A stretch of 64,000 nt of DNA, taken from Parcubacteria group bacterium GW2011_GWC1_36_108. Its GTDB lineage: Bacteria > Patescibacteriota > Minisyncoccia > Moranbacterales > GWC2-37-73. Of the stretch, positions 14,937 through 30,972 are shown piece by piece. Below the pieces are notes generated by a model, which ran no database searches, was not told the DNA's origin, and was given only the letters and a program-made list of their open reading frames with translations. The stretch is taken from contig LBRD01000006.1 in the NCBI GenBank assembly GCA_000991245.1, positions 39,340-103,339 of the forward strand, read 5' to 3'. A program made the translations under genes and the position numbers. The first letter of the stretch is position 1; each line of letters begins with the position of its first letter.

Positions 14937-15026
14937 ATCTTTTATTTTTATATTCCCATTAATAAGATCATTGTAACATATTTTTTACAATAAAAAAATG
15001 GAGAACTTGTTTATTAGTTCTCCATA

Positions 15027-15692: not shown

Positions 15693-15904
15693 ATTGTGCC
15701 TCCTTGTTCTTGTAAGATGTTAAGGATCTCTTTGGCTTGCTCAATATCCATGATTTCAATGATTATTCCTCTTTGAGAAATAACGAAATCACCGATTGCT
15801 AAGTCTACAATGGTTTTTAATTCCTGTCTAGCTCCATCGTGATTTTCCACGATAACAGAATTTTCTTTTATTTCAATAACTTTTTTAGGTAAAGTTAGAC
15901 ACAT
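15689..15904 (-). CDS. hypC: Hydrogenase maturation chaperone HypC/HupF
   Basis: Starts MCLTLP (the MC(L/I)(A/G)(I/V)P signature). 71 aa. Confidence 0.8.
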   Translation of the reverse strand: MCLTLPKKVIEIKENSVIVENHDGARQELKTIVDLAIGDFVISQRGIIIEIMDIEQAKEILNILQEQGGTI

Positions 15905-16023
15905 AGCGCTTTGCGCAAGTCAAAAGCAGAAAGTCAAAAGCTAAAAGCATTACAAAACTGCATTTTTCTTTATGGACTTTACAGACTTGAGACTTTACAG
16001 ACTAATTATTATTTTCTAGTGAA

Positions 16024-16075
16024 GTCGAGAGAAATAAAAGTAATCTTTTATTTCCGAGCGAACGACGAAACCAAG
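16024..16075. other. Conserved ~55-nt intra-operon element (GAGAGAAATAAAAG...TTTTATTTCCGAGCGAACGACGAAAC)
   Basis: Near-identical copy at 27284-27345. Variants at 14048-14097 and 49247-49276. Confidence 0.6.
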
Positions 16076-16088
16076 AGTTTACTAACTC

Positions 16089-17030
16089 TTATTCTTCATC
16101 AATAGCGGTATCAACAGCAGTTAACTTATTTATCGGAGCAACAAAGTCAGCTGGATGAGATGAAATTGAGCATTTTCCACTACTGCAAAAATCAATCATC
16201 TTTTGAGCAACAGTTTTTTTAACTTCATCTTGAGCATCTCCTAGTATTTTTCTGATATCAAAAGCGATTTCTTCTTTTTTGTGCACAGTTTTAATGATGC
16301 TGTTTACAAAAGCCACGCGGGTCGCTGTGTCAACATTGAAACAACAAATCCCGTTAGCCACAGCTTCTTTCACTCTTCCGTTTTCCCAATCAGAAGCGCC
16401 ATGCAAAATAAGTGGCACAGAAACAAGCTCACAAATTTTTGCCAACCTTTCATAATCTGGCTCTTTTCTCTCTTTAACAAAACCATGCGCATTTCCAATT
16501 GCGACAGCCAAAGCATCAATTCCTGTTCGCTGCACAAATTCAGCAGCTTGCTCCGGAACTGTCATATATTTATCCCAGTCAACCTCACCTGATTCCATTT
16601 CTCCAATATATGGAACGCTTCCCAATTCGCCTTGAACATCAACGCCTTTTTCATGACAATAATCTACTATTTTTTTTGTAATTGCAACATTATCATCGAA
16701 ATCTTTTCTTGATCCGTCAATCATAACAGATGTGAATCCGATATCAACACAGCGTTGAACGATATCAAAATTTTTGCCATGATCAAGATGTATTCCAACA
16801 GGAATTTCCGGAGCATAACATTCAACCATATTTTTTATAATGTTAAATATCATTCTTCCGCCAGCATAATCCATGGTTTTTTCAGTGATTTGCAAAATAA
16901 CCGGACTTTTCATTTCTTGAGCCGCTTCAATAATAGCCCTGGTTGTTTCCATGTTTGTGGTATTAAACGCTCCCACAGCATATCCTTCTTCTTGTGCCTT
17001 TGTAAGAATTTCTTTTACTGATGTTATCAT
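16089..17030 (-). CDS. fba: Class II fructose-bisphosphate aldolase
   Basis: EGYAVGAFN, HLDHG and related motifs. 313 aa. Confidence 0.85.
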   Translation of the reverse strand: MITSVKEILTKAQEEGYAVGAFNTTNMETTRAIIEAAQEMKSPVILQITEKTMDYAGGRMIFNIIKNMVECYAPEIPVGIHLDHGKNFDIVQRCVDIGFTSVMIDGSRKDFDDNVAITKKIVDYCHEKGVDVQGELGSVPYIGEMESGEVDWDKYMTVPEQAAEFVQRTGIDALAVAIGNAHGFVKERKEPDYERLAKICELVSVPLILHGASDWENGRVKEAVANGICCFNVDTATRVAFVNSIIKTVHKKEEIAFDIRKILGDAQDEVKKTVAQKMIDFCSSGKCSISSHPADFVAPINKLTAVDTAIDEE

Positions 17031-17120
17031 TAGTCATGTAACATATAGCATATAGCATGCAACAAACAGTGACATCAACAATGTGTGTTTGAATTTTTGT
17101 TATATGTTGTATGTTTTATG

Positions 17121-17891
17121 TTATATGTTTTGATTTATTATTTCTGCAATTTTAACAAACTCCATTGGAATCAAGCTTTCTCTTCCAACCAAGACACCAT
17201 CCATTCCTGGATCAATGCAAAGTTGTTTGGCAGTTGCAGCTTTCACACTGCCTCCGTATAAAATCTTGATTTTTTCAGCCACTGGTTGACCAAAAGTATC
17301 GGCAAATATTTTCTTAATCAAAATCCTAACTTCCATAATTTCATCGCTGGTTGGAACACTATCACTACCAACAGCCCACACCGGTTCATATGCAATAACC
17401 ACTGTTGCAATTTTTGAAACTGGAACATCAGCAAGTCCTTCATGAATCTGTTTGATTATAACATCGGTTGTTTTTCCATTTTGTCTATCTTCAAGTGTTT
17501 CGCCTACACAACAAATTGGAGCAAGACCCGCATTTAAAATGCTATTTATTTTCATCTTTACAACCTCATTTGTTTCATTAAAATTTTTCCTTCGCTCACT
17601 GTGCCCAACAATAGCATACTCACCGCCAATGTTTTTCACCATTGGTGCAGAAATTTCACCCGTAAAAGATCCGCGATCTTCCCAGAAAATATTTTGCGCT
17701 CCTACGGAAAAATCATTTTTTTCAATTTTACCAACAAATGATTCGAGATGAATTGATGGTGGGCAAAGAACAATTTCACACTCAGAAACATTTTTTCCTT
17801 GCAACTCTTTTTTAAAAGACTCCAAATAGCGATCCCGTTCAGCAACGGTAAGAAGGTTCATTTTTAAATTTCCCACAATCAATTTACCCAT
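17121..17891 (-). CDS. tpiA: Triosephosphate isomerase
   Basis: VGNLKMN, AIVGHSERR and YEPVWAVG motifs. Confidence 0.9.
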   Translation of the reverse strand: MGKLIVGNLKMNLLTVAERDRYLESFKKELQGKNVSECEIVLCPPSIHLESFVGKIEKNDFSVGAQNIFWEDRGSFTGEISAPMVKNIGGEYAIVGHSERRKNFNETNEVVKMKINSILNAGLAPICCVGETLEDRQNGKTTDVIIKQIHEGLADVPVSKIATVVIAYEPVWAVGSDSVPTSDEIMEVRILIKKIFADTFGQPVAEKIKILYGGSVKAATAKQLCIDPGMDGVLVGRESLIPMEFVKIAEIINQNI

Positions 17892-17910
17892 AGTTATTTT
17901 ATCTTTAAGC

Positions 17911-18390
17911 TTAAAAATACAAAGTGATTGCTAAAACTATCGCCCCAGCTACCATTGTCCCAGCGAGTAAGAGAGGTAGAGATTTTTTTAGTTTAACATC
18001 AAAAACAAAAGCTGCAAGTGCGCCTGTCATCCCACCCAAAAGTGGAATTGGAGTTGCAGCCAAAATAAAAATTGCCCATTCTCCATATTTTTCCATTTTT
18101 CCATTAGCGCGTTTTCTAGTATGTTCGAAAAGCCAAACAAAAAACTTTTCAAAAATAGGAATATATTTTGACAAAAGTTTTGCAATTGGATCAAGTAATA
18201 AAACGATGATAACCATCACAAAATATGTTCCCGCGACCGAATAAAACCAAGCAGCTAAAGGACTTAGACCATAAACCTTAACTGCCAATGGTATTGAGGC
18301 CCGAAGTTCCGTTACTGGAATAAAGGCAATCAGAAACGTTGCCAGCTCACGAGGAACGTTCGAAAATAAACTAATAATATATTCTGACAT
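17911..18390 (-). CDS. Small integral membrane protein (Sm_multidrug_ex-like)
   Basis: PVTELRASIP motif. Four predicted helices. Confidence 0.45.
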   Translation of the reverse strand: MSEYIISLFSNVPRELATFLIAFIPVTELRASIPLAVKVYGLSPLAAWFYSVAGTYFVMVIIVLLLDPIAKLLSKYIPIFEKFFVWLFEHTRKRANGKMEKYGEWAIFILAATPIPLLGGMTGALAAFVFDVKLKKSLPLLLAGTMVAGAIVLAITLYF

Positions 18391-18475
18391 AAATAAAAAG
18401 TTTATAAAGTAAAAAGTTTTTAAAGTTTATAAGGAAAATTCAAAATACTTTATGAACTTTATAAACTTGATGAAC

Positions 18476-19582
18476 TTATTTCTCCAGTTGTTTTCTTAAA
18501 AATTCTGCTGCTACTTCTGGCTGAAGTGTTGAAATTTCAATGCCAGTGTCCAATTCAAATCCAGCCCAAGTTGCAGTATGAGGCAAAATTTCAATATGCC
18601 AATGAAAATGAGGATAATCTCTCCCATCACACGGAGCGGAATGAATATAAAAATTGTAAGGAGGATCGTTGAGCGCTTTATAAATTGCGCCAAGAGCTTT
18701 ACCAAAGACTTCCGCCAACTTCACTTTCTGCTCATCATTAATTCTTTCAAAATATGGACTATGTTTTTTTGGCATCACATGAACTTCAAATGCTGCTCTT
18801 GAAGCAAACGGACAAAATGCAATAAACTCCTCATTTTCAAAAATCGTACGCTTTCCTTCTTCACTTTCATATTCAGCCATGGTGCAAAAAACACACTCTT
18901 TATTACTTTTATAATATTTTTCCGCACCATCTAATTCTAACTTGATATATGGAGCAACAACGGGAATAGCCATTAATTGTGAATGTGGATGTGAAATTGA
19001 AGCTCCCGCTTCCTTGCCATGATTATGAAAAACTGTTACATAATTGACACCTTTTTTATTCATATGCTCAAGATATCTATCTTGATAAGCGTCAAAAACC
19101 TCGGCAATCTCCATCGTATCCATCATTGCTAATTGACGATAATGATCACGAGTTACAACAATCTCATGATATCCAACACCAGACATTGCAAAATATGGTC
19201 CCTCAGAAATAGGATGTGGCAATTCTCCTTGAGAAAATGCGGGGTATTTATTAGGAAAAACACGCAGCGTCCAATCACCATCAGCTTTGTGATAAATCAA
19301 AACATCCTTTTCCTGACCACTTGCCACAGGATCTTCAAAAAGACATTCCTCAATCCCCTTATCATCTTTATTTCTTTCAAAATTAGCAAAATCACCAGGA
19401 CGCTTTGCGCGTCCCGTTGCAATAACAACCCAATCACCAGAAACAATATCTTGCCTCAACTCTGAAGCTGAGACTTCTTTTGTTTCCTCTTTGGGTTCGT
19501 TTTCTTTTGAATTGTTAATGGAAATATTCACAATTTCTTGCCCTGTTAAATTGTTTACCCAGTTGAATTTATTTATATTCAA
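18476..19582 (-). CDS. galT: Galactose-1-phosphate uridylyltransferase-family (HIT superfamily) enzyme. Start codon uncertain.
   Basis: SHPHSQLMA (HxHxQ) and the CVFC zinc motif. The first ~14 codons of the ORF overlap a conserved leader element, so a downstream (possibly GTG) start is likely. Confidence 0.7.
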   Translation of the reverse strand: MNINKFNWVNNLTGQEIVNISINNSKENEPKEETKEVSASELRQDIVSGDWVVIATGRAKRPGDFANFERNKDDKGIEECLFEDPVASGQEKDVLIYHKADGDWTLRVFPNKYPAFSQGELPHPISEGPYFAMSGVGYHEIVVTRDHYRQLAMMDTMEIAEVFDAYQDRYLEHMNKKGVNYVTVFHNHGKEAGASISHPHSQLMAIPVVAPYIKLELDGAEKYYKSNKECVFCTMAEYESEEGKRTIFENEEFIAFCPFASRAAFEVHVMPKKHSPYFERINDEQKVKLAEVFGKALGAIYKALNDPPYNFYIHSAPCDGRDYPHFHWHIEILPHTATWAGFELDTGIEISTLQPEVAAEFLRKQLEK

Positions 19583-19609
19583 CAGGGCGGAAACACTATT
19601 TAACTGGGG
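19541..19609. other. Structured leader element, copy a (overlaps the annotated galT start)
   Basis: CCCTGTTAAAT...[CCCAGTTGAAT-loop-ATTCAACAGGG]...ATTTAACTGGGG. Confidence 0.7.
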
Positions 19610-19678
19610 TTGTTTTTATTTTTGATTTTGTATTTTTCAATTTGCCAGTTACCAGTTATTGATTACTGGTTACTATTC

Positions 19679-20428
19679 CTACTTCCCAATATTGTATTTT
19701 CCGGTAATCAGTCTCCATTTTGTCTTAAACAAATCAATCAACACCTGAATAAATCCATTTGGTCCGGTCAGACTCACTGTTGAACCTTCTTCATTGAGCC
19801 ATCTTACTGGCATTTGTTTAATCTTGAAACCAAGCTCTTTTGCTAAAATAATCAATTCAAAATCAAAACCGAAACGATCAACAACCATGCGCTGCGCAAC
19901 TTCGTGAGCAGCTTTGCCGGTCAACATTTTAAAACCACATTGAGTATCTGGAAAACTCCAGAGCCCCAATATAATCCTAATAAGCCAATTTCCACCTTCG
20001 CCCATAAATTCTCGATATTTTGGTTGATGAATTTGAACAAATGCTCCTTTTATTTTTCGTGAACCAACAACGACATCAACACCAGACTCCAATTCTGGTA
20101 GACACTTCTCCACATGCGTAATTGAAGTTGAACCATCAGCATCTAAAAATACAACGTACTTACCTTTAGCTTCAAGTAATCCCTGACGAACAACATAACC
20201 CTTACCATGATTAACTTCGTTGTTTATAACACGAAGGTTTTTTATTTGTTTTGCATAATTTCGCGCCACCTCAGCCGTATTATCAGGTGAGCCATCAATA
20301 ACAATAATAACCTCATATTCAAAATTCTTGTCTGACAAAAATTTTTCAATTTCCAATAAGTTAGCACCTATTCTTTCTTTTTCTTTATATGCCGGAATCA
20401 CCACCGACAAGTATGGCTGCTGTTCCAT
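19679..20428 (-). CDS. Family 2 glycosyltransferase (polyprenyl-phosphate sugar transferase-like)
   Basis: SVVIPAYKE...IIVIDGSPDNT...FLDADG motifs. Confidence 0.75.
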   Translation of the reverse strand: MEQQPYLSVVIPAYKEKERIGANLLEIEKFLSDKNFEYEVIIVIDGSPDNTAEVARNYAKQIKNLRVINNEVNHGKGYVVRQGLLEAKGKYVVFLDADGSTSITHVEKCLPELESGVDVVVGSRKIKGAFVQIHQPKYREFMGEGGNWLIRIILGLWSFPDTQCGFKMLTGKAAHEVAQRMVVDRFGFDFELIILAKELGFKIKQMPVRWLNEEGSTVSLTGPNGFIQVLIDLFKTKWRLITGKYNIGK

Positions 20429-20486
20429 TTTTTTTAAATATTACTGATTAAACACCTTTTAAACTATTTTAATTATAACACATGAT

Positions 20487-20915
20487 TTAATTTGTATCTA
20501 GCCATGATTGGAGGATTATCCTAGCAGCTTCTTGATCATCAGTTTTAGCAATATCTCGTCCTCCACGCATTTTAATGTTTGCCTGTGCCATTTTAGTTGT
20601 GAACATTTCTTCTTGAAACATAACACTAATTCCGGATTCTTTCTCAATCTTTTTTGCAAAATCCATTTTCTCTTGCTCACTTTGCTTGTCATTAGTATGC
20701 TTTGTCATTCCAAGTACAATCATTTTTATATCTTCTTTTTTGATAATCTCTTTTAATTTTTGCAAAAACTCACCATCATTCTTGATTGTGTCATATGCGA
20801 AAGCCATTTTCGTTTCACTGTCAGCAATTGCTAATCCAATTTTAGACTTACCAAAATCTACCCCCAAAATGTGGCTTACTTCAGCCATATCTGACTGGTC
20901 TATTGACTTATTCAT
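20487..20915 (-). CDS. ruvX: RuvX/YqgF Holliday-junction-resolvase-like nuclease
   Basis: ILGVDFGKSKIGLAIAD N-terminal RNase H-like motif. Confidence 0.8.
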   Translation of the reverse strand: MNKSIDQSDMAEVSHILGVDFGKSKIGLAIADSETKMAFAYDTIKNDGEFLQKLKEIIKKEDIKMIVLGMTKHTNDKQSEQEKMDFAKKIEKESGISVMFQEEMFTTKMAQANIKMRGGRDIAKTDDQEAARIILQSWLDTN

Positions 20916-20996
20916 AAATATATGCTATTATTAATCATCGATATACGTAGTATATCATATATCCTAAATTTCAGTTCTTACAAAAAGGAGAATGCT

Positions 20997-21302
20997 ATGG
21001 AAAAGTTCAGACCGGAATCACAATACATGCGCAAAGGCGTTATGGCATTATTTGCAGTAGCAATACCTCTGGCCATATTTTTTTGCTGGTACTGGGTAAG
21101 CTACATATTCCGCGTTTCAAATGAGGCGTTCTATGAATCTGTACCAGGAGGTATTCCCTGGTGGATGCCAACACTCGCTATGTTTATTGCCAGCTACATA
21201 ATAAGTATAGCTCGTAAGATACAAATAAGAGATGCTCGAAAGAATAAATATATCTCTTATGACGGAAAAGATTCGAGGTTTCATAGCTGTCTCCTTAAAT
21301 AA
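20997..21302 (+). CDS. Small two-helix membrane protein (hypothetical). The only plus-strand gene in this stretch.
   Basis: AAGGAG RBS 8 nt upstream of the ATG at 20997. Followed by a strong terminator. GC visibly higher than the neighbours. Confidence 0.5.
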   Translation: MEKFRPESQYMRKGVMALFAVAIPLAIFFCWYWVSYIFRVSNEAFYESVPGGIPWWMPTLAMFIASYIISIARKIQIRDARKNKYISYDGKDSRFHSCLLK

Positions 21303-21325
21303 GGCCGCTACTCAGCAAGTATTCA

Positions 21326-21368
21326 GAACCCCACCTCCAGAACATCGGAGACTAGGGGTTCTTTTTTT
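21326..21368 (+). terminator. Rho-independent terminator
   Basis: GAACCCC...GGGGTTC stem followed by TTTTTTT. Confidence 0.7.
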
Positions 21369-21508
21369 ATTTCAAAATATCCTTTTTTGTCATTCTCAGC
21401 TTGACTGGGAATCCAGCCCTTATCAGCCTCGGTAAATTTATTATTTCAAATATGTAGTAACGATTAGTGTCGGGTCTGGATTCCCGTTTTCACGGGAATG
21501 ACAATGAC

Positions 21509-22273
21509 CTACACCGTCAGAACTTCCACTCCGTTTTTCGTGATTAAAATTGTGTTTTCATAGTGGGCGCTGAGTTTTCGGTCAGCAGTCAAATATGCCC
21601 AACCATCGGGGCTCATAACAGTAAGATGGGTTCCAACATTAACCATTGGTTCCAGCGCCAAAGTCATCCCCTGCTCCAATACCAAATCCCTGAAACCTTT
21701 TTCGAAATAATTTGGAACTTGTGGATCTTCGTGAAGATTTTTTCCAATACCGTGACCAACCAAATTTTTCACTACTGAAAAACCAGCATCCTCAGCAATC
21801 TTTTGCGCAGTTTTGCAATATTCGCTAAGCATTGATCCGGCTTTTAAATTTTTAATTCCTTTCCAAAAAGCTTTTTCAGTAATTTCCATTAATTTCTGAG
21901 CTTCTGCGCTAATTTCTCCAACAGCAAAGGTGCGTGCCATATCAGAATAAAAACCTTCTATTTCAATACCAATATCAATCTTAAAAATGTCGCCATTTTT
22001 CAAGATTTTGTCTTCGCTGGGAATACCGTGCACAATTTCATCATTAATCGAAGCGCAAATTGTGGCAGGAAAAGGATTGCTGCCTCCGCCATATCCCTTA
22101 AAAGCTGGGGTTCCACCAGCATTTAAAACAAGCTCCTCGGCGAGCTTGTCAATTTCTATTGTGCTCACGCCAGGTCTAACTTGCTCACCAATTTCTCGCA
22201 TAATTTCAGCCAGCATTTTGCCAGCGCGACGCATAATAGCTATTTCTGATTCAGTTTTAATTGAAATACTCAT
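21509..22273 (-). CDS. map: Methionine aminopeptidase type I
   Basis: IKTESEIAIMRRAG and metal-ligand motifs. Start trimmed to MSISIK. Confidence 0.85.
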   Translation of the reverse strand: MSISIKTESEIAIMRRAGKMLAEIMREIGEQVRPGVSTIEIDKLAEELVLNAGGTPAFKGYGGGSNPFPATICASINDEIVHGIPSEDKILKNGDIFKIDIGIEIEGFYSDMARTFAVGEISAEAQKLMEITEKAFWKGIKNLKAGSMLSEYCKTAQKIAEDAGFSVVKNLVGHGIGKNLHEDPQVPNYFEKGFRDLVLEQGMTLALEPMVNVGTHLTVMSPDGWAYLTADRKLSAHYENTILITKNGVEVLTV

Positions 22274-22414
22274 AATATTATTTAAAACTCGAAATTCGAA
22301 TATCGAAACTCGAAACAAATTTTAATATCAAATTTTCAAAATTCAAAACATTTTTAATTATTTGAATTTATTATTTTGATATTGTTTCGGATTTCGGATT
22401 TCGTGCTTCGGATT

Positions 22415-23053
22415 TTAAAACTCTTCAATAATATCTTCAAAAACTTTCTCCACACTTTGGTTTCCATCCACTTCAATAAGCATTCCTTTTTCTCTGTATT
22501 TTTCAATAACTGGAACTGTGACTTCATAAAAAGTTTTTAGTCTTTTGGCCACGCCATCGGGAGTGTCATCGCCTCGTTGCATCACAGGTCCACCACAAGT
22601 AGGACAAGGATCTTCATCACCGGAAATGTGTTTACCTAAAATGAAATGCCGATAGCAAACTGTGCAAGCATAACGTTTTGTGATGCGAGCAACAGATTCA
22701 TCATATGGAAGAGTAATGTAAATTGCCTTATCTATCGGCCTGTTGAGCTCTTGCAGCATTTTTTCAATAGGCTCAATTTGTCCTATTGTTCGCGGCGCAC
22801 TGTCCAATATGACGCCCTTTTGGGAAGAAACTTTTTCTAAACTATTTTTAATAACATCAACCGTGATTTCATCCGGGATCATTTCCTTATGATCATTTAA
22901 TTCTTTGATTTTCTTTCCCAACTCTGAATTTTCTCTGCCAATTTCACGAAAAATTTGCCCTGTTTCAATATGCGCAAGATTATATTTTTCAGCCAAAAGA
23001 TCTGCTTGTGTGCCCTTGCCGGAGCCTTGAGGACCGAAGATAATTAGATTCAT
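22415..23053 (-). CDS. adk: Adenylate kinase with a Zn lid (CxxC...CxxC)
   Basis: MNLIIFGPQGSGKGTQA, CTVCYRH and CPTCGG. Start trimmed because the ORF N-terminus overlaps a repeat. Confidence 0.9.
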   Translation of the reverse strand: MNLIIFGPQGSGKGTQADLLAEKYNLAHIETGQIFREIGRENSELGKKIKELNDHKEMIPDEITVDVIKNSLEKVSSQKGVILDSAPRTIGQIEPIEKMLQELNRPIDKAIYITLPYDESVARITKRYACTVCYRHFILGKHISGDEDPCPTCGGPVMQRGDDTPDGVAKRLKTFYEVTVPVIEKYREKGMLIEVDGNQSVEKVFEDIIEEF

Positions 23054-23074
23054 GCAGCATGTATCATATAGCAT

Positions 23075-23148
23075 GTAACATAAGACTCAAAGAAAAAAGC
23101 TGAATCTGTATTTTTGTTATATGTTATATGTTGTATGTTATATGTTTT
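23075..23148. repeat. Representative intergenic tandem-heptamer inverted array (CATATAG-type arm, AT spacer, TTATATG-type arm)
   Basis: CATGTATCATATAGCATGTAACAT...TTGTTATATGTTATATGTTGTATGTTATATG. Same architecture at about 19 other intergenic sites. Confidence 0.8.
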
Positions 23149-24420
23149 TTAGAATCCTTCGTAATCTCTCATCACGAGTTGACCTTCAATTTGCTTGATT
23201 GTCTCAATCACAACTGAAACAACAATAAGAATGCTTGTGCCACCAATTTGAATAGCTTGAATATTGGTTAATCCCTGAACTATAAACGGAAGCACAGCAA
23301 TGATTCCTAGAAATATTGACCCCGTAAGGGTAATGCGATTCATAATCTTATAAAGAAAATCTGCGGTTGTTGCCCCCGGTCTGATGCCTGGAATATATCC
23401 TCCTTGTTTTTGCAAATTTTCTGCAATTTTAACTGGATCAAAAACGACAGCAGTATAAAAATATGTAAACATCACAATCAAAACAAAATACATACTACTA
23501 TAAAAAACTTGATTTTGGAAAAGAGTGTTCACGAAAGTTGCTGCATTGGCAATCATTGGGCTGCTAGCTTTCATTAAAAAAGTTGCAATCATTCCAGGAA
23601 AAAGCATAATGGACATCGCAAAAATGATTGGAATCACACCAGCTTGATTAACCCTAAGTGGCAAATGTGAAGATGAACCGCCATAAGTTTTGTCCCCTCT
23701 AACTCTCTTTGCATATGAAACTGGGATATTTCTTTGACCCTCTGTTACCATCACAACTCCACTAATAGTAATGAGCGTTACTACCAAAAGTCCGATGTAA
23801 ATGAATATTTGGGTGGAATCAAATGTCAAAAACAATTTTGACATACTTGAAGGCAAGCCACTGACAATTCCGGCAAAGATAATCAAGGAAACCCCGTTTC
23901 CAATTCCCTTTTCTGTGATAAGTTCTCCAAGCCACATCAAAAAAACTGTTCCTGCGGTTGCAATAACAACGATAACAAAAATTTCAAAAGTTGAAGTTAT
24001 TGAAAGCACTCCTTGGGAGCGAAGAAGTGTTACCATAGAAAAAGTCTGAATTACCGCCAAAGGAACAGTGAGCCACCTTGTCCACATATTAAATTTCTGA
24101 CGACCAGCTTCACCCTCTTCTTTGTATAATTGTTCTACTCGTGGCACAATCATCGTCAAAAGCTGCATAATAATTGACGCAGTAATATACGGTCCAACAC
24201 CGAGCATTACGATTGAAATATTTGTCAAACCTCCTCCAGAAAAAACATTCAACATCCCCAAAAATTGATTGCCTTCAAAAAGTCTTCGAAGTTGTTCGAT
24301 ATTCACACCTGGAAGAGGAATGTTGGCGGCTATGCGGAAAACAATAAGAATCCCCAAGATAAAGAGGATTTTATTGCGAAGCTCGGTTATTTTAAATATT
24401 TGTGTTATTTTTTCAAGCAT
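23149..24420 (-). CDS. secY: Preprotein translocase SecY
   Basis: Ten-helix profile and conserved SecY segments. Confidence 0.9.
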   Translation of the reverse strand: MLEKITQIFKITELRNKILFILGILIVFRIAANIPLPGVNIEQLRRLFEGNQFLGMLNVFSGGGLTNISIVMLGVGPYITASIIMQLLTMIVPRVEQLYKEEGEAGRQKFNMWTRWLTVPLAVIQTFSMVTLLRSQGVLSITSTFEIFVIVVIATAGTVFLMWLGELITEKGIGNGVSLIIFAGIVSGLPSSMSKLFLTFDSTQIFIYIGLLVVTLITISGVVMVTEGQRNIPVSYAKRVRGDKTYGGSSSHLPLRVNQAGVIPIIFAMSIMLFPGMIATFLMKASSPMIANAATFVNTLFQNQVFYSSMYFVLIVMFTYFYTAVVFDPVKIAENLQKQGGYIPGIRPGATTADFLYKIMNRITLTGSIFLGIIAVLPFIVQGLTNIQAIQIGGTSILIVVSVVIETIKQIEGQLVMRDYEGF

Positions 24421-24519
24421 AAAAGACAGCTTTTTAGGCTTTAGCTTCTTAGCTTCTTAGCCGTTAAATTAAATATAATTTTAATTTCCTGAAAAGCTGC
24501 GAAGCTGATGCCTGAGAAG

Positions 24520-24957
24520 CTATTCTAGGATTTTTCCGCCTGCTTTGATTATAGCATCTTTTGCAGTTTGAGAGCAAAGAAGCTCTGCTGAAATAGTAAG
24601 TTTTTTAGTAACAGTTCCAGTAGCTAAGATTTTCACACCATCTTTCGCATCAGCTTTATCAATAAGCTTAGTTTTGAGCAATGTTTCAACAGAAACAACA
24701 TCTCCATCTTTGTAAAATTTTTCCAAAGCTTCCAATTTTACAACTGTTTTCTTGGCAGCAAGAGATTTAAATCCACGAACTTTTTTCAAACGTTCAACAA
24801 GTGAAGATCGTCCACCTTCAAACAATGGATCAATAGATGCTCCAGAGCGAGCTTTCTGACCCTTGTTTCCTTTTCCAGAATAAGTTCCGCGTTTTCCTCC
24901 GCGACCAACGGTTTTTTTATCCTTTCGTTTTTTTACTGTAAGTTGATGAATTTGCAT
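24520..24957 (-). CDS. rplO: Ribosomal protein uL15
   Basis: GRGGKRGTYSGKGNKGQKARSG. Confidence 0.9.
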   Translation of the reverse strand: MQIHQLTVKKRKDKKTVGRGGKRGTYSGKGNKGQKARSGASIDPLFEGGRSSLVERLKKVRGFKSLAAKKTVVKLEALEKFYKDGDVVSVETLLKTKLIDKADAKDGVKILATGTVTKKLTISAELLCSQTAKDAIIKAGGKILE

Positions 24958-24958
24958 A

Positions 24959-25489
24959 TTATTTTACTGCTTTAATTTCCTTAGCTTCTTTAACTTCAAC
25001 GTCTTTAGTCATTTTAATGCGTGGAGCCTTGAGAGCTTTCAAAGCTTCAATTGTTGCTCGCGCAACATTAAGCTTATTCGCTGTTCCCAAAGATTTTGAA
25101 ACAATGTCGCGAATACCAGCCAAATCAACCACTGCTCGCACAGCACCTCCAGCAATAACACCTCGTCCCTCTGAAGCTGGCTTAAGCAAAACTTTTGCGC
25201 TTCCCAATTTCATTCTAATGTCATGAGGAATAGTATTGTCGGACAAATTAACCGTGATCATACATTTCTTTGCATCATTGTAAGCCTTGGTAATAGCATC
25301 AGAAACATCCGATCCCTTAGACACACCAACACCAACTCTTCCTTTGCGATCACCGATCACCAAAGTTGCACGAAAACGAAATCTTCGTCCTCCTTTTACT
25401 ACACGAGTAACACGAGCTAAATCCAAAAGTTTTTGTTCAAATTCTGGTTTCTCTCTGCGTGTATTTTTTTTGCCTGGTCTCTTATTCAT
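24959..25489 (-). CDS. rpsE: Ribosomal protein uS5
   Basis: GRRFRFRATLVIGDRKGRVGVGVSKG. Confidence 0.9.
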   Translation of the reverse strand: MNKRPGKKNTRREKPEFEQKLLDLARVTRVVKGGRRFRFRATLVIGDRKGRVGVGVSKGSDVSDAITKAYNDAKKCMITVNLSDNTIPHDIRMKLGSAKVLLKPASEGRGVIAGGAVRAVVDLAGIRDIVSKSLGTANKLNVARATIEALKALKAPRIKMTKDVEVKEAKEIKAVK

Positions 25490-25519
25490 AGGATAATATA
25501 GTATTTATAATTCAAAACA

Positions 25520-25870
25520 TTAAAACTGCAGTCCGCCTTCTCTAGCACCATCAGCTAAAGATTTAACTTTTCCATGATATTGATATCCTGCTCTATCAAA
25601 TGTCACTGATTCAATTTTAAGTGCAACGCATTTCTTAGCAATAAGCTTTCCAACTTCTTTTGCACCCTCAATTGTATTGGCTGCCTTTTTTATTTCTGCA
25701 AGATTTGCGCTTGCGAGAGTCTTTCCAACAGTGTCATCAATAACTTGAACATAAATGCCCTTCAGGCTTTTAAACACGGCTAACCTCGGCCTGCTTGCAG
25801 ATCCTGAGATCTTTGCGCGAACTCTACGTTTTCTTTGTAATCGGCCGCTATTGCTACTTAATTTGTTCAT
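25520..25870 (-). CDS. rplR: Ribosomal protein uL18
   Basis: RPRLAVFKSLKGIYVQVIDD. Confidence 0.9.
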   Translation of the reverse strand: MNKLSSNSGRLQRKRRVRAKISGSASRPRLAVFKSLKGIYVQVIDDTVGKTLASANLAEIKKAANTIEGAKEVGKLIAKKCVALKIESVTFDRAGYQYHGKVKSLADGAREGGLQF

Positions 25871-25989
25871 AAAATTATACTAATTATGCGAATTTATGCT
25901 AATACACGAATATGCGAATTACGAATGTTATATTTGCGTCATTTGCATATTTGCAGCATTCGCATTCATTCGTGTATTCGTATCGCTAA

Positions 25990-26526
25990 TTATTTACTTG
26001 ATTTTTTACCTTCTTTTCTTCGTACATGCTCTCCAACATATTTAAATCCTTTTCCCTTGTACGGTTCAACTGGCTTAAGTGCTCTAATATTAGCAGAAAA
26101 TTGCCCAACCTTGTGTTTGTCAATTCCTGATACTGTCATCACATTTCCCTCAATCACAACATCCAAATCTGCAGGAACTTCAACAACTACAGGATGTGAA
26201 AATCCGAGCGCAAGAGTAATGGTCTTTCCTGCAATCGCCATACGAAAACCAACTCCATTAAGTTCAAGTTGTTTCTTGAATCCAGTTACCACTCCTTCGA
26301 TCATATTTTCAATCACACGAGCTGTTGTGCCCCAAAGAGCAGGAACATTTTTACCTTTAGCTTCTTTTTCAACCGTAAATTCTTTTTCTCCAAATTTAAT
26401 CGAAACATCAAAATGATGCTGAAATGTCATCGTGCCTTTTGGACCAACAACAGTAACCAGATTTTTATCTGTTGTTACAGTTACGCCTTCTGGGATAGCT
26501 ACAGATTTTTTTCCAATTCTACTCAT
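25990..26526 (-). CDS. rplF: Ribosomal protein uL6
   Basis: MSRIGKKSVAIPEGVTV. Confidence 0.9.
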   Translation of the reverse strand: MSRIGKKSVAIPEGVTVTTDKNLVTVVGPKGTMTFQHHFDVSIKFGEKEFTVEKEAKGKNVPALWGTTARVIENMIEGVVTGFKKQLELNGVGFRMAIAGKTITLALGFSHPVVVEVPADLDVVIEGNVMTVSGIDKHKVGQFSANIRALKPVEPYKGKGFKYVGEHVRRKEGKKSSK

Positions 26527-26623
26527 ATATATTTAACTTACAACTCATAACTTATAACTTATAACGTGCCATGCTTGAGTTTTTTAAGTTGTTTGTTATT
26601 GGTTATTAGTTATTAGTTATTTC

Positions 26624-27028
26624 TTACCAAACTTCACAAATTACTTCACCACCGAGACCAAGTTTTTTTGCCTTATCGCCTGTCATCATTCCTTGCGATG
26701 TTGATATCACTGAAATTCCATATCCATTCTTAACACGCTTTATATCAGTCTTTTTCACATAAATTCTCTGACCTTGGCGACTTACACGCTTGATTTCAGA
26801 AATTGCAGGATTCTTTTCAGTATTTGAAACAACTTCATATCGAAGGACAATTCTAAGCACTGGAAATGTTTCTCCCATTTCTTTTTTCACAGATTCGATG
26901 AAATTTCTTTGCTCTAAAATTTTAGCGATAGACAGTTTCAATTTCGAAAAAGGCACTAACACTTCTTTGTGTTTAACCATTTGCGCATTTCGAATTCTTG
27001 TAAGCATGTCTGCTATTGGATCTAACAT
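26624..27028 (-). CDS. rpsH: Ribosomal protein uS8
   Basis: DPIADMLTRIRNA. Confidence 0.9.
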   Translation of the reverse strand: MLDPIADMLTRIRNAQMVKHKEVLVPFSKLKLSIAKILEQRNFIESVKKEMGETFPVLRIVLRYEVVSNTEKNPAISEIKRVSRQGQRIYVKKTDIKRVKNGYGISVISTSQGMMTGDKAKKLGLGGEVICEVW

Positions 27029-27070
27029 ATTCTAATTCTTTATCCTAATTATAATTATACTAATTCAAAT

Positions 27071-27256
27071 TTACCAACTACTCTTTGTTACTCCCGGTAG
27101 CTCACCCTTGCTTGCTAATTCTCGGAAGCAGATTCTGCAGATATCGTATGCACGAAGATAGCCATGCTTACGACCACATCGCCAACAACGGCGCACAATT
27201 CTGGTTGAAAACTTTGGTTTCTTCTCTGCTCGAGCTTCTGTAGATGTTTTTGCCAT
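27071..27256 (-). CDS. rpsZ: Ribosomal protein uS14, zinc-binding type Z
   Basis: 61 aa. [20 protein letters not shown]. Confidence 0.9.
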
Positions 27257-27283
27257 AAAATTCTTGTGTTAATTCTTATTGTC

Positions 27284-27345
27284 TAGCGGAGCGAGAGAAA
27301 TGAAAATTCTTTTTCATTTCCGAGCGAGCGACGACAACAAAACGT
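27284..27345. other. Second copy of the TTTCCGAGCGARCGACGA element, between rplE and rpsZ
   Basis: GAGCGAGAGAAATGAAAATTCTTTTTCATTTCCGAGCGAGCGACGACAAC. Confidence 0.6.
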
Positions 27346-27352
27346 ACTCGTT

Positions 27353-27910
27353 TTATTCGCTTTTTAGTGGAAATCCTAATAATTTAAATAATTCTAATCC
27401 TTCTGCTTGTGTGTGTGCATTTGTTGAAACTGTGATCTGCATTCCGAACGTATGCTTTACTTTTTCTGGAGAAATTTCAGGAAAAATCATATGCTCCTTG
27501 AGTCCAATATTCAGATTACCTCCCGTATCAACAGCTTTTCTATTTAACCCTTGAAAATCTCTGGTTCGTGGAAGTGTTGCTGCTACAATCCTATCGATAA
27601 ACTGCCACATCCTAGCTCCACGCAAAGTAACTTTGACACCAATCTCCATCCCCTCTCTAATTTTAAATCCAGAAATAGCTTTCTTCGCTTTTGTCTTTAC
27701 AGGTTTTTGACCAGTAATTGCAGTAAGCGCAGTTACAATTTCTTCTATTTTGTCATTTTCCTTAACAATCTTTCCAATTCCAACATTAACAACAACCTTC
27801 TGAATTCGAGGTACAGCCATAACACTTTTATAGCTAAACTTCTTCTTCATCTCAGCTACAGCTATTTTGGTATATTTATCTTTTGCTGGAGTTATATTCA
27901 TACAATTCAC
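27353..27910 (-). CDS. rplE: Ribosomal protein uL5
   Basis: Conserved uL5 core. Confidence 0.9.
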   Translation of the reverse strand: MNCMNITPAKDKYTKIAVAEMKKKFSYKSVMAVPRIQKVVVNVGIGKIVKENDKIEEIVTALTAITGQKPVKTKAKKAISGFKIREGMEIGVKVTLRGARMWQFIDRIVAATLPRTRDFQGLNRKAVDTGGNLNIGLKEHMIFPEISPEKVKHTFGMQITVSTNAHTQAEGLELFKLLGFPLKSE

Positions 27911-27968
27911 TTAAAACGAATAAATTAAGGGCTATTTACTATATTAAAACATTTTCTCAAAATTCAAA

Positions 27969-28274
27969 TTATATTTCTTTTCCGCATTTCTTGCATACCC
28001 GAACTTTCTTTCCATTAGTTGTTTGATATGAAACTCGAGTTGTCTTTCCGCATCCTGGGCAAATAATCATTGCATTGGAAGCATCGAATGGGGCTGCGAT
28101 TTCAACACGTTGTCCTCGCTGTCCTTCTCGACGAGACTTTTGATGTTTCGTCACAATATTCAATTTTTCAACCACAATTTTTCCCTCGCTTGGCACAGTA
28201 CGAACAACCTTTCCTTGCTTTCCCTTATCTTTGCCAGCTATTTTTTTTACGAGGTCTCCTTTTTTAATTCTCAT
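27969..28274 (-). CDS. rplX: Ribosomal protein uL24 carrying a C4 zinc-ribbon in its C-terminal half
   Basis: MRIKKGDLVKKIAGKDKGKQGKV, then CPGCGKTTRV...VCKKCGK. Confidence 0.85.
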   Translation of the reverse strand: MRIKKGDLVKKIAGKDKGKQGKVVRTVPSEGKIVVEKLNIVTKHQKSRREGQRGQRVEIAAPFDASNAMIICPGCGKTTRVSYQTTNGKKVRVCKKCGKEI

Positions 28275-28303
28275 ATATATATCTTATTTATGGACTGCAA
28301 TTA

Positions 28304-28669
28304 TTATAATACCTCTGGTGCTAATGAAACGATCTTTGAGAAACCTTTTTCACGAAGTTCTCGAGCAATCGGTCCAAAAATACGAGTTCCTTTTGGCTCT
28401 TTATCATTCAAAACCACAGCAGCATTTTCATCAAATCGAATATATGAACCATCTTTTCTGCGAATAGCTTTCTTCGTTCTAACAACCACAGCGCGAATCT
28501 TATCACCTTTTTTTACCAATCCTCGCGGTTCTGAAGATTTTACAGAGCAAACAATAATATCACCAACAGAAGCATAGCGTCTTCTGGTTCCACCAAGAAC
28601 TTTAAAACACTCAATGATTTTTGCTCCTGAGTTATCAGCTGCCTTTAATTTTGTTTCTGCTTGAATCAT
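28304..28669 (-). CDS. rplN: Ribosomal protein uL14
   Basis: [17 protein letters not shown]. Confidence 0.9.
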
Positions 28670-28691
28670 ATATTTACTACTATACTAAATG

Positions 28692-28943
28692 TTATGCTAT
28701 TACTGTGTGGCTCTTATCTTTACTGATTGGTCGACACTGAATAAATTCAACCTTTTCGCCTTTCTTAAATTTATTCTCAGCGTCGTGAACCTTATATTTC
28801 ACTGTTGATTTATATTTCTTATGATACTTGGGATGAGTTTTCAATGACTGAACAGCAACAACAATTGTTTTGTCCATTTTATCACTAACAACAACTCCCT
28901 TTTTCTTTGCTAAATTTTTTGTAACATTTGTCATAATAGTCAC
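28692..28943 (-). CDS. rpsQ: Ribosomal protein uS17
   Basis: KGVVVSDKMDKTIVVAV. Confidence 0.9.
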   Translation of the reverse strand: MTIMTNVTKNLAKKKGVVVSDKMDKTIVVAVQSLKTHPKYHKKYKSTVKYKVHDAENKFKKGEKVEFIQCRPISKDKSHTVIA

Positions 28944-28982
28944 TTCGCTAAATTTTAAATTTGAAATTTGAAATTATTGTAA

Positions 28983-29177
28983 TTACTTTTGCTCAGCTCT
29001 TTCTTTTAAGATAGTCAGTGTGCGAGCAATATCAGTTTTTAATGCTCGATATTGTCGATGATTCTTAAGCTGCCGAGCAGCAATATCAAACCTAAGCTTA
29101 ACAGCTTGAGTTCTTTTTTCAGCGAGCATCTTTTTCAGTTGCTCAATATTCATATCTCTAATTTCCTGAATTTTCAT
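28983..29177 (-). CDS. rpmC: Ribosomal protein uL29
   Basis: 64 aa. EIRDMNIEQLKKML. Confidence 0.85.
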   Translation of the reverse strand: MKIQEIRDMNIEQLKKMLAEKRTQAVKLRFDIAARQLKNHRQYRALKTDIARTLTILKERAEQK

Positions 29178-29187
29178 ATATGATTTC

Positions 29188-29601
29188 TTATTTTTCTTTA
29201 ACTACAAACTTTGTCTTAACATTAAGCTTATGAGAGGCTAGTCGCATTGCTTCTTTGGCAATTGCTTCTGTTATACCATCCATTTCAAATAAAACTCTTC
29301 CTTGCTTAGTTTTTGCTACGAAATGATCAACACTTCCTTTTCCCTTACCCATAGGTGTTTCATCACCCTTCTTTGTCATTGGCTTGTCAGGAAAAATTCT
29401 AATCCAAATTTTGCCTCCTCGCTTGACATATCTTGTCATCGCACGACGAGCAGCTTCGATTTGACGTGCAGAAATCAATCCAGAAGTCATAGCCTTGAGT
29501 CCAAAGCTACCAAAACTAACAGTGTTACCAGTTTGGGCAACTCCGCGGATTTCTCCACCTCGATGAATCTTTCTGTGTTTAACTTTTTTCGGCATCAACA
29601 T
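29188..29601 (-). CDS. rplP: Ribosomal protein uL16
   Basis: [16 protein letters not shown]. Confidence 0.9.
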
Positions 29602-29639
29602 ATGCGTATCTTTTAATCAAAATGTAAAATTTTTCTTGG

Positions 29640-30287
29640 TTACTCCTTATCAAATACTTCTCCTTTGTACAACCATGTCTTTACTCCAATTGCTCCATAA
29701 GTTGTAAACGCAGTAGCTTTTGAGAAATCAATGTCAGCACGAAGTGTGTGAAGTGGAACTGTTCCACGTGACAACCATTCTCTTCGTGACATTTCTGCTC
29801 CTCCCAATCGTCCAGAAACTTCAATCTTCACTCCTTTAATGTTCTTGTTCTTTTCAACTTGATCCAACATTGATTTTAGAATCCTTCTAAAAGGCACACG
29901 TTTTTCAAGTTGTTCTGCAACATTTTGAGCAACCAATGAAGCATTCTCTTCAAATTGTCTAACTTCTTGAGCTTCAATTCTTAGATCAATCTTCTTTCCT
30001 GCAAAAAATTTAGTTTTAATTGCTGCACTCATATCGCCAATCCCTGTCCCACCTCTTCCAATCAAAACTCCCGGACGAGATGTTTTTATGATCAATTTCA
30101 GCGTATTAGCGCTTCTTTCAATTTCAACATCAGCAATAGCTGCAGATTTCCATTTTTTCATCACAAACTCACGAACCTGAACATCCTCTTTGAGTTTTTT
30201 GGTGTAATCTTTACCAGCAAACCACCTTGATTTCCAAGTTGTTGTGATTCCTAGACGCAGCCCTGTTGGATTGACTTTATGTCCCAT
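29640..30287 (-). CDS. rpsC: Ribosomal protein uS3
   Basis: MGHKVNPTGLRLG and a KH domain. Confidence 0.9.
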   Translation of the reverse strand: MGHKVNPTGLRLGITTTWKSRWFAGKDYTKKLKEDVQVREFVMKKWKSAAIADVEIERSANTLKLIIKTSRPGVLIGRGGTGIGDMSAAIKTKFFAGKKIDLRIEAQEVRQFEENASLVAQNVAEQLEKRVPFRRILKSMLDQVEKNKNIKGVKIEVSGRLGGAEMSRREWLSRGTVPLHTLRADIDFSKATAFTTYGAIGVKTWLYKGEVFDKE

Positions 30288-30350
30288 AATTTTATCTCTA
30301 ATTAACTGTATTTTTTATCATTTATTATCTCTAAAATTCAATGTTTCAAT

Positions 30351-30920
30351 TTATGCTCCAGATTTTCTTTGAAAAACTTTTTTCAAAAATCCACTATCTT
30401 GTCCTTTCTTTATTGTTTCTTTGCTAGCGGTAGTTTTTTTAGCAACAGTTTTTTCCTGAACAACTTCCTCACCAGCTTCTGCTTTTTCCATTTCCGCTAC
30501 AGCTTCTTTCATCGCTTTGGTTCTAGCAGCTTCATTTTCAGCTTTTTGTTTATCCAATTCGGCTTTTGTCTTCTTGTTTTTTCCTTCTATTCTTTCTTCC
30601 AATTCCAGTTTAATATGAGATGTTCTTTTCAAAAGCAATGTTGCTCGTCCCTGAGCTCTCGGAAGCCATCTCTTAAGTTTAGCTCCTTCTCCCACGAGAA
30701 TACTGCTAACAAACATATTTTCTTTGTCCAATCCAAAATTATTTTCAGCATTTGACAAAGCACTGTTCAATAGTTTCTCCAAAGGTTCACTTGTCTTTTT
30801 TACAAGATGATGAAGCTGAACAAGAGCTGCGCTTGCATTCATTCCGACAATGCTGTTTGTTACCAAACGAACTTTTCGCGGAGATGTTCTTAAATTGTTG
30901 AGTGATGCTATTACTTTCAT
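30351..30920 (-). CDS. rplV: Ribosomal protein uL22 with a ~75-aa Lys/Glu-rich C-terminal extension
   Basis: uL22 core in the first ~110 aa, then a KAELDKQKAENEAARTKAMKEA...-type tail. Confidence 0.85.
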   Translation of the reverse strand: MKVIASLNNLRTSPRKVRLVTNSIVGMNASAALVQLHHLVKKTSEPLEKLLNSALSNAENNFGLDKENMFVSSILVGEGAKLKRWLPRAQGRATLLLKRTSHIKLELEERIEGKNKKTKAELDKQKAENEAARTKAMKEAVAEMEKAEAGEEVVQEKTVAKKTTASKETIKKGQDSGFLKKVFQRKSGA

Positions 30921-30972
30921 AATAATATATATGTCTCTAATTTACACTAATTTCTAATTATATCCTTCCAAT

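Follow-up and report, generated by a model that had tools for sequence, protein, structure and literature searches.

The 64,000-nt stretch of contig LBRD01000006.1 from Parcubacteria group bacterium GW2011_GWC1_36_108 analyzed here (hereafter the window) has a G+C content of 36%, holds nearly all of its genes on the minus strand, and is 20% non-coding. Its gene content includes smc, a group-3b-like NiFe hydrogenase, glycolytic genes, and a tuf-to-map ribosomal-protein cluster with secY (23149-24420) and adk, and the element under study is a hairpin with arms of tandem heptamers that occupies the entire spacer between these last two genes. One window-encoded protein is identical to one from ‘Candidatus Moranbacteria bacterium GW2011_GWC2_37_73’, and the nearest relatives of SecY come from Moranbacteria and other Parcubacteria metagenome-assembled genomes (MAGs). 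Our comparison set consisted of the window plus 160 related loci (2.3 Mb), the relatives being MAG contigs sampled solely around secY, and the conserved tuf-to-map ribosomal cluster (S10-spc) that flanks the element keeps its canonical order in the 160 loci. By SecY identity, the closest relatives found were loci L154 (93%, partial), L053 (88%, partial), and L081 (84%); a near-identical strain showing copy-number polymorphism was sought, and L154 was the closest.

Gene calls were based on open reading frames (ORFs), with start codons estimated via homology. Arrays were detected with Tandem Repeats Finder (TRF) at a period of 7-9 and at least 3 copies (a strict array), and inverted repeats by aligning each spacer locally with its own reverse complement under transition-neutral scoring, a score of at least 30 being taken as strong. 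Copies within one family are not independent of each other, and the counts below should be read in that light.

Residue 8 of the listed ORF is where the adenylate kinase profile begins, which places the true adk start at the ATG 23053-23051 and gives the element a span of 23054-23148. The original prediction had placed it at 23075-23148; the element there is real, and its left arm (23054-23082) lies outside that range. Read along the mRNA (minus) strand, the order is secY stop, AA, (ACATATA/ACATACA) x4.6, a 32-nt A/T-rich loop, GUUACAUGCUAUAUGAUACAUGCUGC, and AUG, with the following parts:

23115-23146, minus strand: stop-proximal arm, G-free in the mRNA, starting 2 nt past the secY stop (23149-23151)
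23083-23114, minus strand: A/T-rich spacer or loop, which differs from the loops of sister copies
23054-23082, minus strand: start-proximal arm, abutting the adk start and the source of a false MLYDTCCM extension

TRF reports the stop-proximal arm as period 7, 4.6 copies, and 92% matches, and this arm is identical (100% over 38 nt) to an arm at 12716-12747. That such arrays translate into false N-terminal extensions, as the original prediction had proposed, is borne out by the profile starts at residue 8 (adenylate kinase) and residue 13 (HypA) of the listed ORFs.

Twenty-four strict arrays were found in the window, 23 of them in the non-coding 20% of its DNA (p = 2e-15), which confirms that tandem arrays of 7-9-nt units are mainly intergenic. 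The sole strict heptamer array within coding DNA (7862-7894, AACTTTC x4.7) lies inside smc. The further claim that almost every gap between co-directional genes carries such an element was overstated: about one third of the gaps of 35-300 nt (13 of 42) hold a strict array, 14 co-directional gaps contain a strong inverted repeat, and most rplB-to-rpsH junctions have neither. Where elements occur, the predicted architecture of two inverted arrays around a spacer is found at most of the sites that had been listed (9741-9850, 12655-12745, 15905-16040, 17030-17145, 18395-18480, 22280-22410, 23054-23148, 24425-24520, 25875-25990, 26527-26623, 32206-32282, 32682-32782, 44560-44660, and 45150-45300), but 28945-28990, 33420-33470, 37074-37200, and 52950-53000 have one array only, and the units at 46645-46855 and 14020-14130 are in direct orientation.

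Across the window and the 160 related loci, period 7 accounts for 206 of 331 arrays, the median array has 4.6 copies and is 32 nt long, and 102 distinct canonical heptamers are represented. Adjacent arrays are inverted in 29 cases, direct in 1, and unrelated in 3. The typical element is intercistronic and ~80-120 nt long, with two inverted ~32-nt arrays (4-5 tandem heptamers each, without an internal dyad) around a loop of 5-40 nt, and the base of its stem lies at a median of 3.5 nt past the stop codon and 9 nt ahead of the first ATG. Arrays are absent from many Parcubacteria loci and from most Firmicutes outgroup loci. In the window, Rfam gave no gathering-level match, and at E<=1 solely sub-threshold miRNA-precursor models, which are generic long hairpins, were retrieved; a tRNA and tmRNA search of the window found none.

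Clustering by similarity yields at least 22 families. The copies of the focal family and the other heptamer or period-9 elements of the window are as follows:

12656-12745, minus strand: sister copy of the focal family (CATRTAR), lying between the genes for the hydrogenase large subunit and a HypA-like protein; -34.4 (plus) vs -14.8 kcal/mol (mRNA)
17039-17123, minus strand: sister copy, likewise of the focal family, located in the tpiA-fba spacer, with the stop codon of the upstream gene inside the array
46690-46844, no strand assigned: two focal-family arrays in direct orientation, flanking an unrelated inverted repeat in the divergent region between a peptidase M50 gene (minus) and rpmB (plus)
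32206-32282, minus strand: CATGGAA/CATAGAA hairpin, related to the focal family, in the rplW-rplB spacer; 6 sense A·C and 0 G·U at a single unit position
24428-24521, minus strand: AAGCTAA-family hairpin in the rplO-secY spacer; the family lies at the same junction in L081 and L053
26540-26620, minus strand: AACTAAT/GTTATAA-family hairpin in the rpsH-rplF spacer
32686-32781, minus strand: second AACTAAC/GTTGTAA copy, in the rplD-rplW spacer
37111-37170, minus strand: single AACTAAC-family array of 8.6 copies, without an inverted partner
25877-25983, minus strand: ACGAAT/ATTCGT-family hairpin in the rplF-rplR spacer; the unit also occurs in L001 and L005-L008
44589-44675, minus strand: TACGAAT/TACTAAT-family hairpin in the rpsG-fusA spacer
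22283-22417, minus strand: CGAAATC/GATTTCG hairpin in the adk-map spacer; both strands fold alike
18398-18468, minus strand: period-9 AAGTTCATA-family hairpin with symmetric folding; relatives at 9753-9841 and 14100-14124
9753-9841, minus strand: period-9 hairpin of the AAGTTCATA family in the smc 5' leader
45154-45265, no strand assigned: TTTTTAA-family hairpin
11107-11222, no strand assigned: opposite-orientation copy of the preceding element, 95.7% identical over 70 nt
33429-33462, minus strand: single start-proximal array AATTTAA/AATTTAG followed by AGCGAAGCGA; second copy at 28950-28975, and the family lies at other junctions in relatives
52949-52989, minus strand: single G-free array of CCTAATT type, abutting a start codon

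These families are dispersed, and their members move or get replaced between gaps, a point absent from the original prediction. For instance, in L154, whose SecY is 93% identical and whose flanking codons are identical to those of the window, the secY-adk gap holds an unrelated element. At rpsH-rplF, the gap measures 10 nt in L053 but 97 nt in the window, and L084 holds the same family there as the window does, so that both empty and filled orthologous junctions exist. The AACTAAC/GTTGTAA, CGCATAA, and AATTTAG-CGAAGCGA families occupy junctions that differ from genome to genome. In L006, five near-identical elements sit in consecutive ribosomal spacers and differ chiefly in the number of loop-adjacent units. 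Occupancy is 2-16% at each of 23 tuf-to-map junctions, without strong preference, and the median gap is 0-36 nt at most of these junctions. Family copies mostly share their orientation within a locus, between loci they are in the same orientation in 46 cases and the opposite in 31, and one window family (11107-11222 and 45154-45265) has copies in both orientations.

A further claim of the original prediction concerned strand. One arm of each hairpin was said to be C-free, with T where a C would be needed, so that the stem would pair through G·U in a plus-strand RNA and carry A·C mismatches in the mRNA; the proposed reasons were a function in antisense or single-stranded DNA (ssDNA) form, or else a strand-biased mutational process acting on palindromes. 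A C-free arm is found in the CATATAG family and at 32206, but not at 24425, where both arms contain C and G, nor at 9741, 18395, 22280, or 45150. Within the window the asymmetry itself is real: under the transition-neutral alignment, the hairpins contain 42 sense A·C pairs, equal to plus-strand G·U, vs 17 sense G·U pairs (p = 0.0015), and 12 of the 14 hairpins have a plus strand that folds better than dinucleotide-shuffled controls predict, the excess averaging -4.7 kcal/mol. The antisense excess is above 2 standard deviations at 12656, 23051, 24428, 26540, and 51562, plus 32206, which falls below the inverted-repeat cut-off. For the plus-strand RNA of the focal element the folding energy is -30.8 kcal/mol (z -5.5, matched by 0 of 200 shuffles), and for the minus-strand mRNA it is -15.4 kcal/mol (z -1.9). 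In contrast, the 182 hairpins from related genomes show no such asymmetry, with 334 sense G·U vs 335 A·C pairs, mean folding of -31.1 vs -31.0 kcal/mol per strand, and one or the other strand favored in 87 vs 96 cases. Strand-neutral counts and equal energies are what the original prediction had itself named as its refutation, and on those terms an antisense function of the class as a whole is refuted. Single genomes do deviate, and they do so in both directions (chi-square 60, 26 degrees of freedom, p = 2e-4), as the G·U:A·C counts of L113 (4:25), L005 (2:11), L011 (17:4), and L099 (18:6) exemplify.

The window values would fit hairpins that act on the plus strand, whether as RNA that terminates or blocks antisense read-in transcription or as ssDNA structures, and a plus-strand T-run does follow the focal hairpin at 23145-23150. 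We nevertheless consider such a role very improbable. The T-run is not conserved in sister copies, there is no consistent antisense promoter, and no array in the region 9000-28999 is terminator-like on either strand; loops are ~30 nt and stems AT-rich. Folded with DNA parameters, the focal element reaches -9.3 and -7.5 kcal/mol (z -1.0 and -0.4), and neither strand beats shuffles. Furthermore, the related hairpins lack the asymmetry and some genomes have the opposite polarity. Intrinsic terminators, including G·U-polarized unidirectional ones, do share with these elements a hairpin stability that differs between strands through G·U pairs, but a GC-rich stem, a 3-8-nt loop, and a consistent U-tract are all lacking here, the stems being ~30 bp. 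Canonical GC-rich terminators occur elsewhere in the window (e.g., 14998-15025 and 42352-42386).

A further argument against a role on the plus strand comes from where the mispairs fall, since in each asymmetric hairpin they are confined to one or two fixed heptamer positions. In the 12656-12745 hairpin (7 sense A·C, 0 G·U), the stop-proximal CATATAA faces the complement of start-proximal units as CATGTAG, with mismatches at unit positions 4 and 7; at 32206, all six mispairs arise at one position, CATAGAA facing CATGGAA; and at 24428, the mispairs are CAGC facing TAGC. Array homogenization has therefore multiplied a small number of substitutions, and we take the window asymmetry to be a by-product of one or two transitions in the unit of one arm, copied along the array. 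Its direction would reflect a strand bias in composition or mutation that is specific to each genome, and not selection for an antisense hairpin. In line with this, the polarity of a genome correlates with the G+T/A+C skew of its unpaired non-coding sense strand (Spearman rho 0.54, p = 0.004), which supports a link between polarity and strand composition. The strand-biased process thus fits better than a function in antisense form, with one qualification: on the sense strand of the window, array-bearing gaps have C>G (-0.11) while four-fold-degenerate sites have G>C (+0.105). A background replication or transcription mutational skew was therefore rejected as the simple cause of the window asymmetry, as the four-fold sites predict the opposite polarity. 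Because one substitution gets copied many times, G·U asymmetry in tandem-repeat-armed hairpins is no evidence for the strand of function.

A polarity of orientation, which the original prediction merely glimpsed, is real. On the mRNA strand the stop-proximal arm has A>T in 126 vs 49 hairpins (p = 5e-9), and it is A+C-rich in 119 vs 56. Co-directional gaps on the opposite strand number 25 of 1259, with a hairpin in just one, and the directions of transcription and replication are inseparable in this sample.

This polarity tracks gene direction and so bears on a second alternative, namely that the elements are functional cis-acting hairpins in the sense mRNA which bracket stop and start, either for translation coupling or re-initiation at genes without Shine-Dalgarno sites or as stabilizer or processing sites that tune expression. 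The position of the stem base close to both codons suits this reading, as does the persistence of some families at one junction. The absence of Shine-Dalgarno sites from the ribosomal-protein genes, while some small ORFs have strong ones, parallels the setting of the Beggiatoaceae TAACTGA repeats (PMC4679880). Opening the start region is predicted to cost 4.4-16.6 kcal/mol with elements (10 gaps) vs 3.1-6.3 kcal/mol without (8 gaps), and a ribosome placed on the upstream stop lowers this cost sharply at rplO-secY (16.6 to 4.9), secY-adk (9.4 to 5.8), and rplF-rplR (6.7 to 2.8). However, 4 of 10 cases show little or no predicted relief, as the tandem arms re-pair in another register, and a uniform ‘unmasking’ of start codons by the upstream ribosome was rejected, as it works in some gaps only. 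Selection for RNA pairing should strongly favor G·U over A·C on the mRNA strand, and the two are equally frequent (334 vs 335). Elements also occur in a 5' leader without an upstream cistron (9753-9841) and in both orientations, occupancy shows no junction preference, and short stop and start distances are expected of any insert into a 10-20-nt gap. On balance, a function in the sense mRNA appears rather unlikely, though it is the alternative that we take most seriously. A variant in which the hairpins are orientation-biased mobile ‘intercistronic cassettes’ put to functional use, each joining a stop to the next start for Shine-Dalgarno-free re-initiation or insulating and processing cistrons separately, strikes us as quite unlikely; were it correct, it would amount to a CPR-specific organization of operon expression (CPR, candidate phyla radiation) in which tandem arms permit register-shifting hairpins.

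Shine-Dalgarno sites are absent from ribosomal-protein genes at 27030-31375 and elsewhere in the window, as well as in L053, L003, and L084, and strong GGAGG/GGGGG sites lie ahead of small hypothetical ORFs (e.g., near 41400-41650 and 53100-53800). Upstream of many ribosomal-protein starts in several genomes, at a distance of 10-20 nt, a AATTAGAGA- or AATTAGGAT-like motif recurs.

Two further functional proposals were tried and set aside. Arrays do not behave as promoters or terminators: in the region 9000-28999, promoter-like sites number 72 vs 62.9±10.3 in shuffles and terminator-like sites 15 vs 12.7±3.8, no array was called as a promoter or, on either strand, as a terminator, and there is no consistent plus-strand promoter upstream. 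The idea that period-7 units supply stops in every frame behind a gene and ATGs in every frame ahead of the next was likewise rejected: of 88 stop-proximal arrays, 45 have stops in all three frames when read in sense and 34 when read in antisense, and ATG is not enriched.

The omega repressor of pSM19035 recognizes heptads repeated in tandem, whether direct or inverted. By analogy, the arrays might be double-stranded DNA sites for a heptad-reading protein of the ribbon-helix-helix repressor or centromere-binding type. The 7-bp spacing and narrow copy number (median 4.6) are what such sites would have, the ACGAAT/ATTCGT unit recurs in several genomes, and the nucleotides between units are often non-complementary between arms, so that units are better conserved than pairing. 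But genomes this small cannot supply a cognate protein for each of 102 heptamers, co-occurring arrays are almost always inverted (29:1), and the arrays lie inside operons and not at promoters, promoter-like sites not being enriched. Of all the readings, we judge this the least probable.

The window also encodes a RAYT-type (REP-associated tyrosine transposase; REP, repetitive extragenic palindromic sequence) Y1 transposase at 41732-42307 (minus strand), which the original prediction had missed. It matches Pfam Y1_Tnp (PF01797) with 36.7 bits (cut-off 23) and has the HUH and Tyr motifs; its score of 73.5 bits against the NCBIfam model NF047646 (REP-associated tyrosine transposase) is below the cut-off of 80, and its best relative in the PDB is TnpArep 4er8. 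RAYT homologues are common in Parcubacteria. The presence of this gene raises the possibility that the elements are REPIN-like (REPIN, REP doublet forming a hairpin) non-autonomous mobile DNA, moved as single-stranded hairpins by this enzyme, with their strand behavior tied to replication. Similar to REPINs (Bertels & Rainey 2011, PMC3116915), they are ~100-nt extragenic hairpins made of two inverted repeats around a less-conserved spacer, and they form multi-copy families that evolve rapidly within genomes. In contrast to REPINs, their arms are tandem heptamers, and not short imperfect REP palindromes, and the repeat that flanks the RAYT gene is another palindrome (GTAGAGACG...CGTCTCTAC). RAYT homologues in L161, L163, and L164 (Moranbacteria/Parcubacteria) likewise contain, and are flanked by, GC-rich GTAGAGACG-loop-CGTCTCTAC palindromes and no heptamer array.

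In the window, the perfect 28-nt palindrome GTAGAGACGCGATTAATCGCGTCTCTAC has two copies only, one at 42400-42427, just upstream of the RAYT gene, and one at 41985-42012, in frame inside it, where it encodes ..RRDAINRVST.. between the HUH and Tyr motifs. Because palindromes of this kind flank, and sit inside, RAYT genes here and in three relatives, this palindrome, and not the heptamer arrays, is the cognate REP of the window RAYT. A REP within its own RAYT gene may be autoregulatory or may mark a recurrent insertion hotspot. The RAYT was rejected as the mobilizer of the heptamer hairpins, its flanking repeat being a different palindrome. One RAYT would in addition have to serve at least 22 families and 102 units, the families far outnumbering RAYTs, and the focal element, folded with DNA parameters, does no better than shuffles. 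Mobility of this kind is in our view improbable. As an analogy, the REPIN model is still the closest mechanistic counterpart, though the heptamer hairpins fall outside that class.

Immediately downstream of the RAYT gene, direct repeats with GGTGGGTATTTAAAT at 41088-41115 and 41652-41679 (also 37327-37349) bracket a ~560-bp segment that contains two small Shine-Dalgarno-bearing ORFs and may be a small inserted module. Beside this region, a Fic/DOC plus RhuM-family protein is encoded at 40055-41008 (minus strand); together with the small ORFs, this gene suggests a small accessory or mobile gene island between the ribosomal and fusA operons.

Integron attC sites are imperfect inverted repeats between co-directional genes that keep their structure while their sequence varies and that fold in a strand-specific manner. 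The elements described here share all of these properties. They differ from attC sites in having tandem-repeat arms and in lying between the universally ordered S10-spc ribosomal genes (canonical in the 160 loci) and not between mobile promoterless cassettes beside an integrase, and no integrase was found among the proteins scanned.

The long inverted arms of short tandem sub-repeats around a spacer, with an arm copy number that varies between copies as in L006, recall eukaryotic foldback transposons (FB/Tetris, as outlined in PMC4079207) and a Porphyromonas MITE (a transposable element of the miniature inverted-repeat type) that contains a minisatellite (as outlined in PMC4596501). Compared with the elements outlined there, those of the window are much smaller, bacterial, and intercistronic, and for them neither a transposase nor a consensus of terminal inverted repeats nor a target-site duplication was identified. 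As regards MITEs in general, no target-site duplication was evident by eye at the empty and filled junctions, and there is no known parent transposon.

Cyanobacterial short tandemly repeated repetitive (STRR) heptamers are a further example of heptanucleotide repeats in bacteria. Among long simple-sequence repeats of prokaryotes, those with heptanucleotide units are described as the most common, with slippage given as their origin (Mrazek 2007, summarized in PMC4679880), and the present arrays are of this kind in that they consist of tandem 5-11-nt units with period 7 predominant. The nearest published case is that of the direct TAACTGA repeats found between genes in marine Beggiatoaceae, Cyanobacteria, and Bacteroidetes, which lie near start codons and inside ribosomal operons in genomes with few Shine-Dalgarno sites (MacGregor 2015, PMC4679880). 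Both sets consist of tandem 7-nt units, are almost solely intergenic, often end a few nt from a start codon, occur in ribosomal-protein operons with few Shine-Dalgarno sites, have a patchy phylogenetic spread, and lack a known mechanism. In contrast, the TAACTGA-type repeats use one dominant heptamer in direct orientation (169 direct sets vs 1 indirect), whereas neither a single heptamer nor direct repetition characterizes the present elements, with their 102 heptamers and inverted pairs at 29:1. What is new here is the near-obligatory inverted pairing into ~95-nt hairpins, the large unit vocabulary, and the colonized CPR ribosomal operons. Literature searches found no account of such elements in CPR, Patescibacteria, or Moranbacteria.

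Taking this evidence together, we see roughly an even chance that the secY-adk hairpin is one copy of a dispersed, fast-turnover class of ‘foldback’ repeats, non-coding and occurring in Moranbacteria and other Parcubacteria. The elements would be mobile or slippage-driven foldback repeats co-transcribed within operons, and they are probably selfish and not antisense terminators. Under this reading, arrays would grow by replication slippage, as has been proposed for prokaryotic heptanucleotide simple-sequence repeats; complementarity of the arms would be maintained through palindrome-templated copying or through descent from a mobile hairpin; and copies would spread among spacers or displace one another. 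They would persist because polycistronic mRNAs tolerate a self-folding insert that separates a stop codon from the next start codon.

Several observations weigh against the selfish foldback reading. A streamlined ~1-Mb genome would be expected to delete useless DNA. The array length is narrow (interquartile range 30-38 nt), which is unexpected under simple neutral slippage, and the orientation polarity described above is strong. Some families hold one junction across ~25% SecY divergence, and in the AACTAAT/AACTAAC family the changes in the unit are in part complementary, T->C in one arm going with A->G in the other. The antisense excess in the window is spread over several families and not one. 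Finally, no mobilizing enzyme, target-site duplication, or excision footprint was found at the compared junctions.

Hairpins of other kinds are present in the same DNA. A 129-nt GC-rich inverted repeat, not built of heptamers, lies at 51562-51690 between two minus-strand genes and folds at -59.6 (antisense) vs -46.0 kcal/mol, a difference that ranks among the largest antisense excesses seen. A second, unrelated dispersed hairpin family, GC-rich (CGCTCGGAAAT..loop..ATTTC..GAGCG), has copies at ~14055-14100, ~16040-16085, and 27285-27335, occurs in both orientations, and is present too in the adk-map gap of L081. In the rpsJ-rplC gap (~34110-34150), a ACTAGTTAAAGTCC-loop-GGATACTCAACTAG hairpin keeps its sequence in five genomes (window, L053, L003, L084, and L037) despite their differing G+C, and it is a candidate ribosomal-protein leader or autoregulatory site, not in Rfam. 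The 1.5-kb gene-free stretch at 9731-11256 has a higher G+C and no Rfam or tRNA match; it contains the two best sigma-70-like sites of the scanned region, both on the minus strand (11055-11027 and 10248-10221, TTGACA/TATACT), and may hold unannotated non-coding RNA genes. Within the ribosomal cluster, rpsE and rplO are 1 nt apart (24957-24959) without rpmD (L30) in between, an absence that is typical of candidate-phyla-radiation genomes.

CPR genomes, ~1 Mb in size, are assumed to be streamlined, yet some Moranbacteria have ~95-nt hairpins in up to most spacers of the most conserved operon, and the hairpins in these spacers turn over faster than the adjoining genes. If the elements are selfish, they would represent a new, RAYT-independent style of miniature foldback DNA, and they would also pose a practical hazard, as false start codons and N-terminal extensions enter annotations and assembly breaks become likely. 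If they are functional, they would constitute an unrecognized form of intercistronic control in organisms whose ribosomal genes are without Shine-Dalgarno sites.

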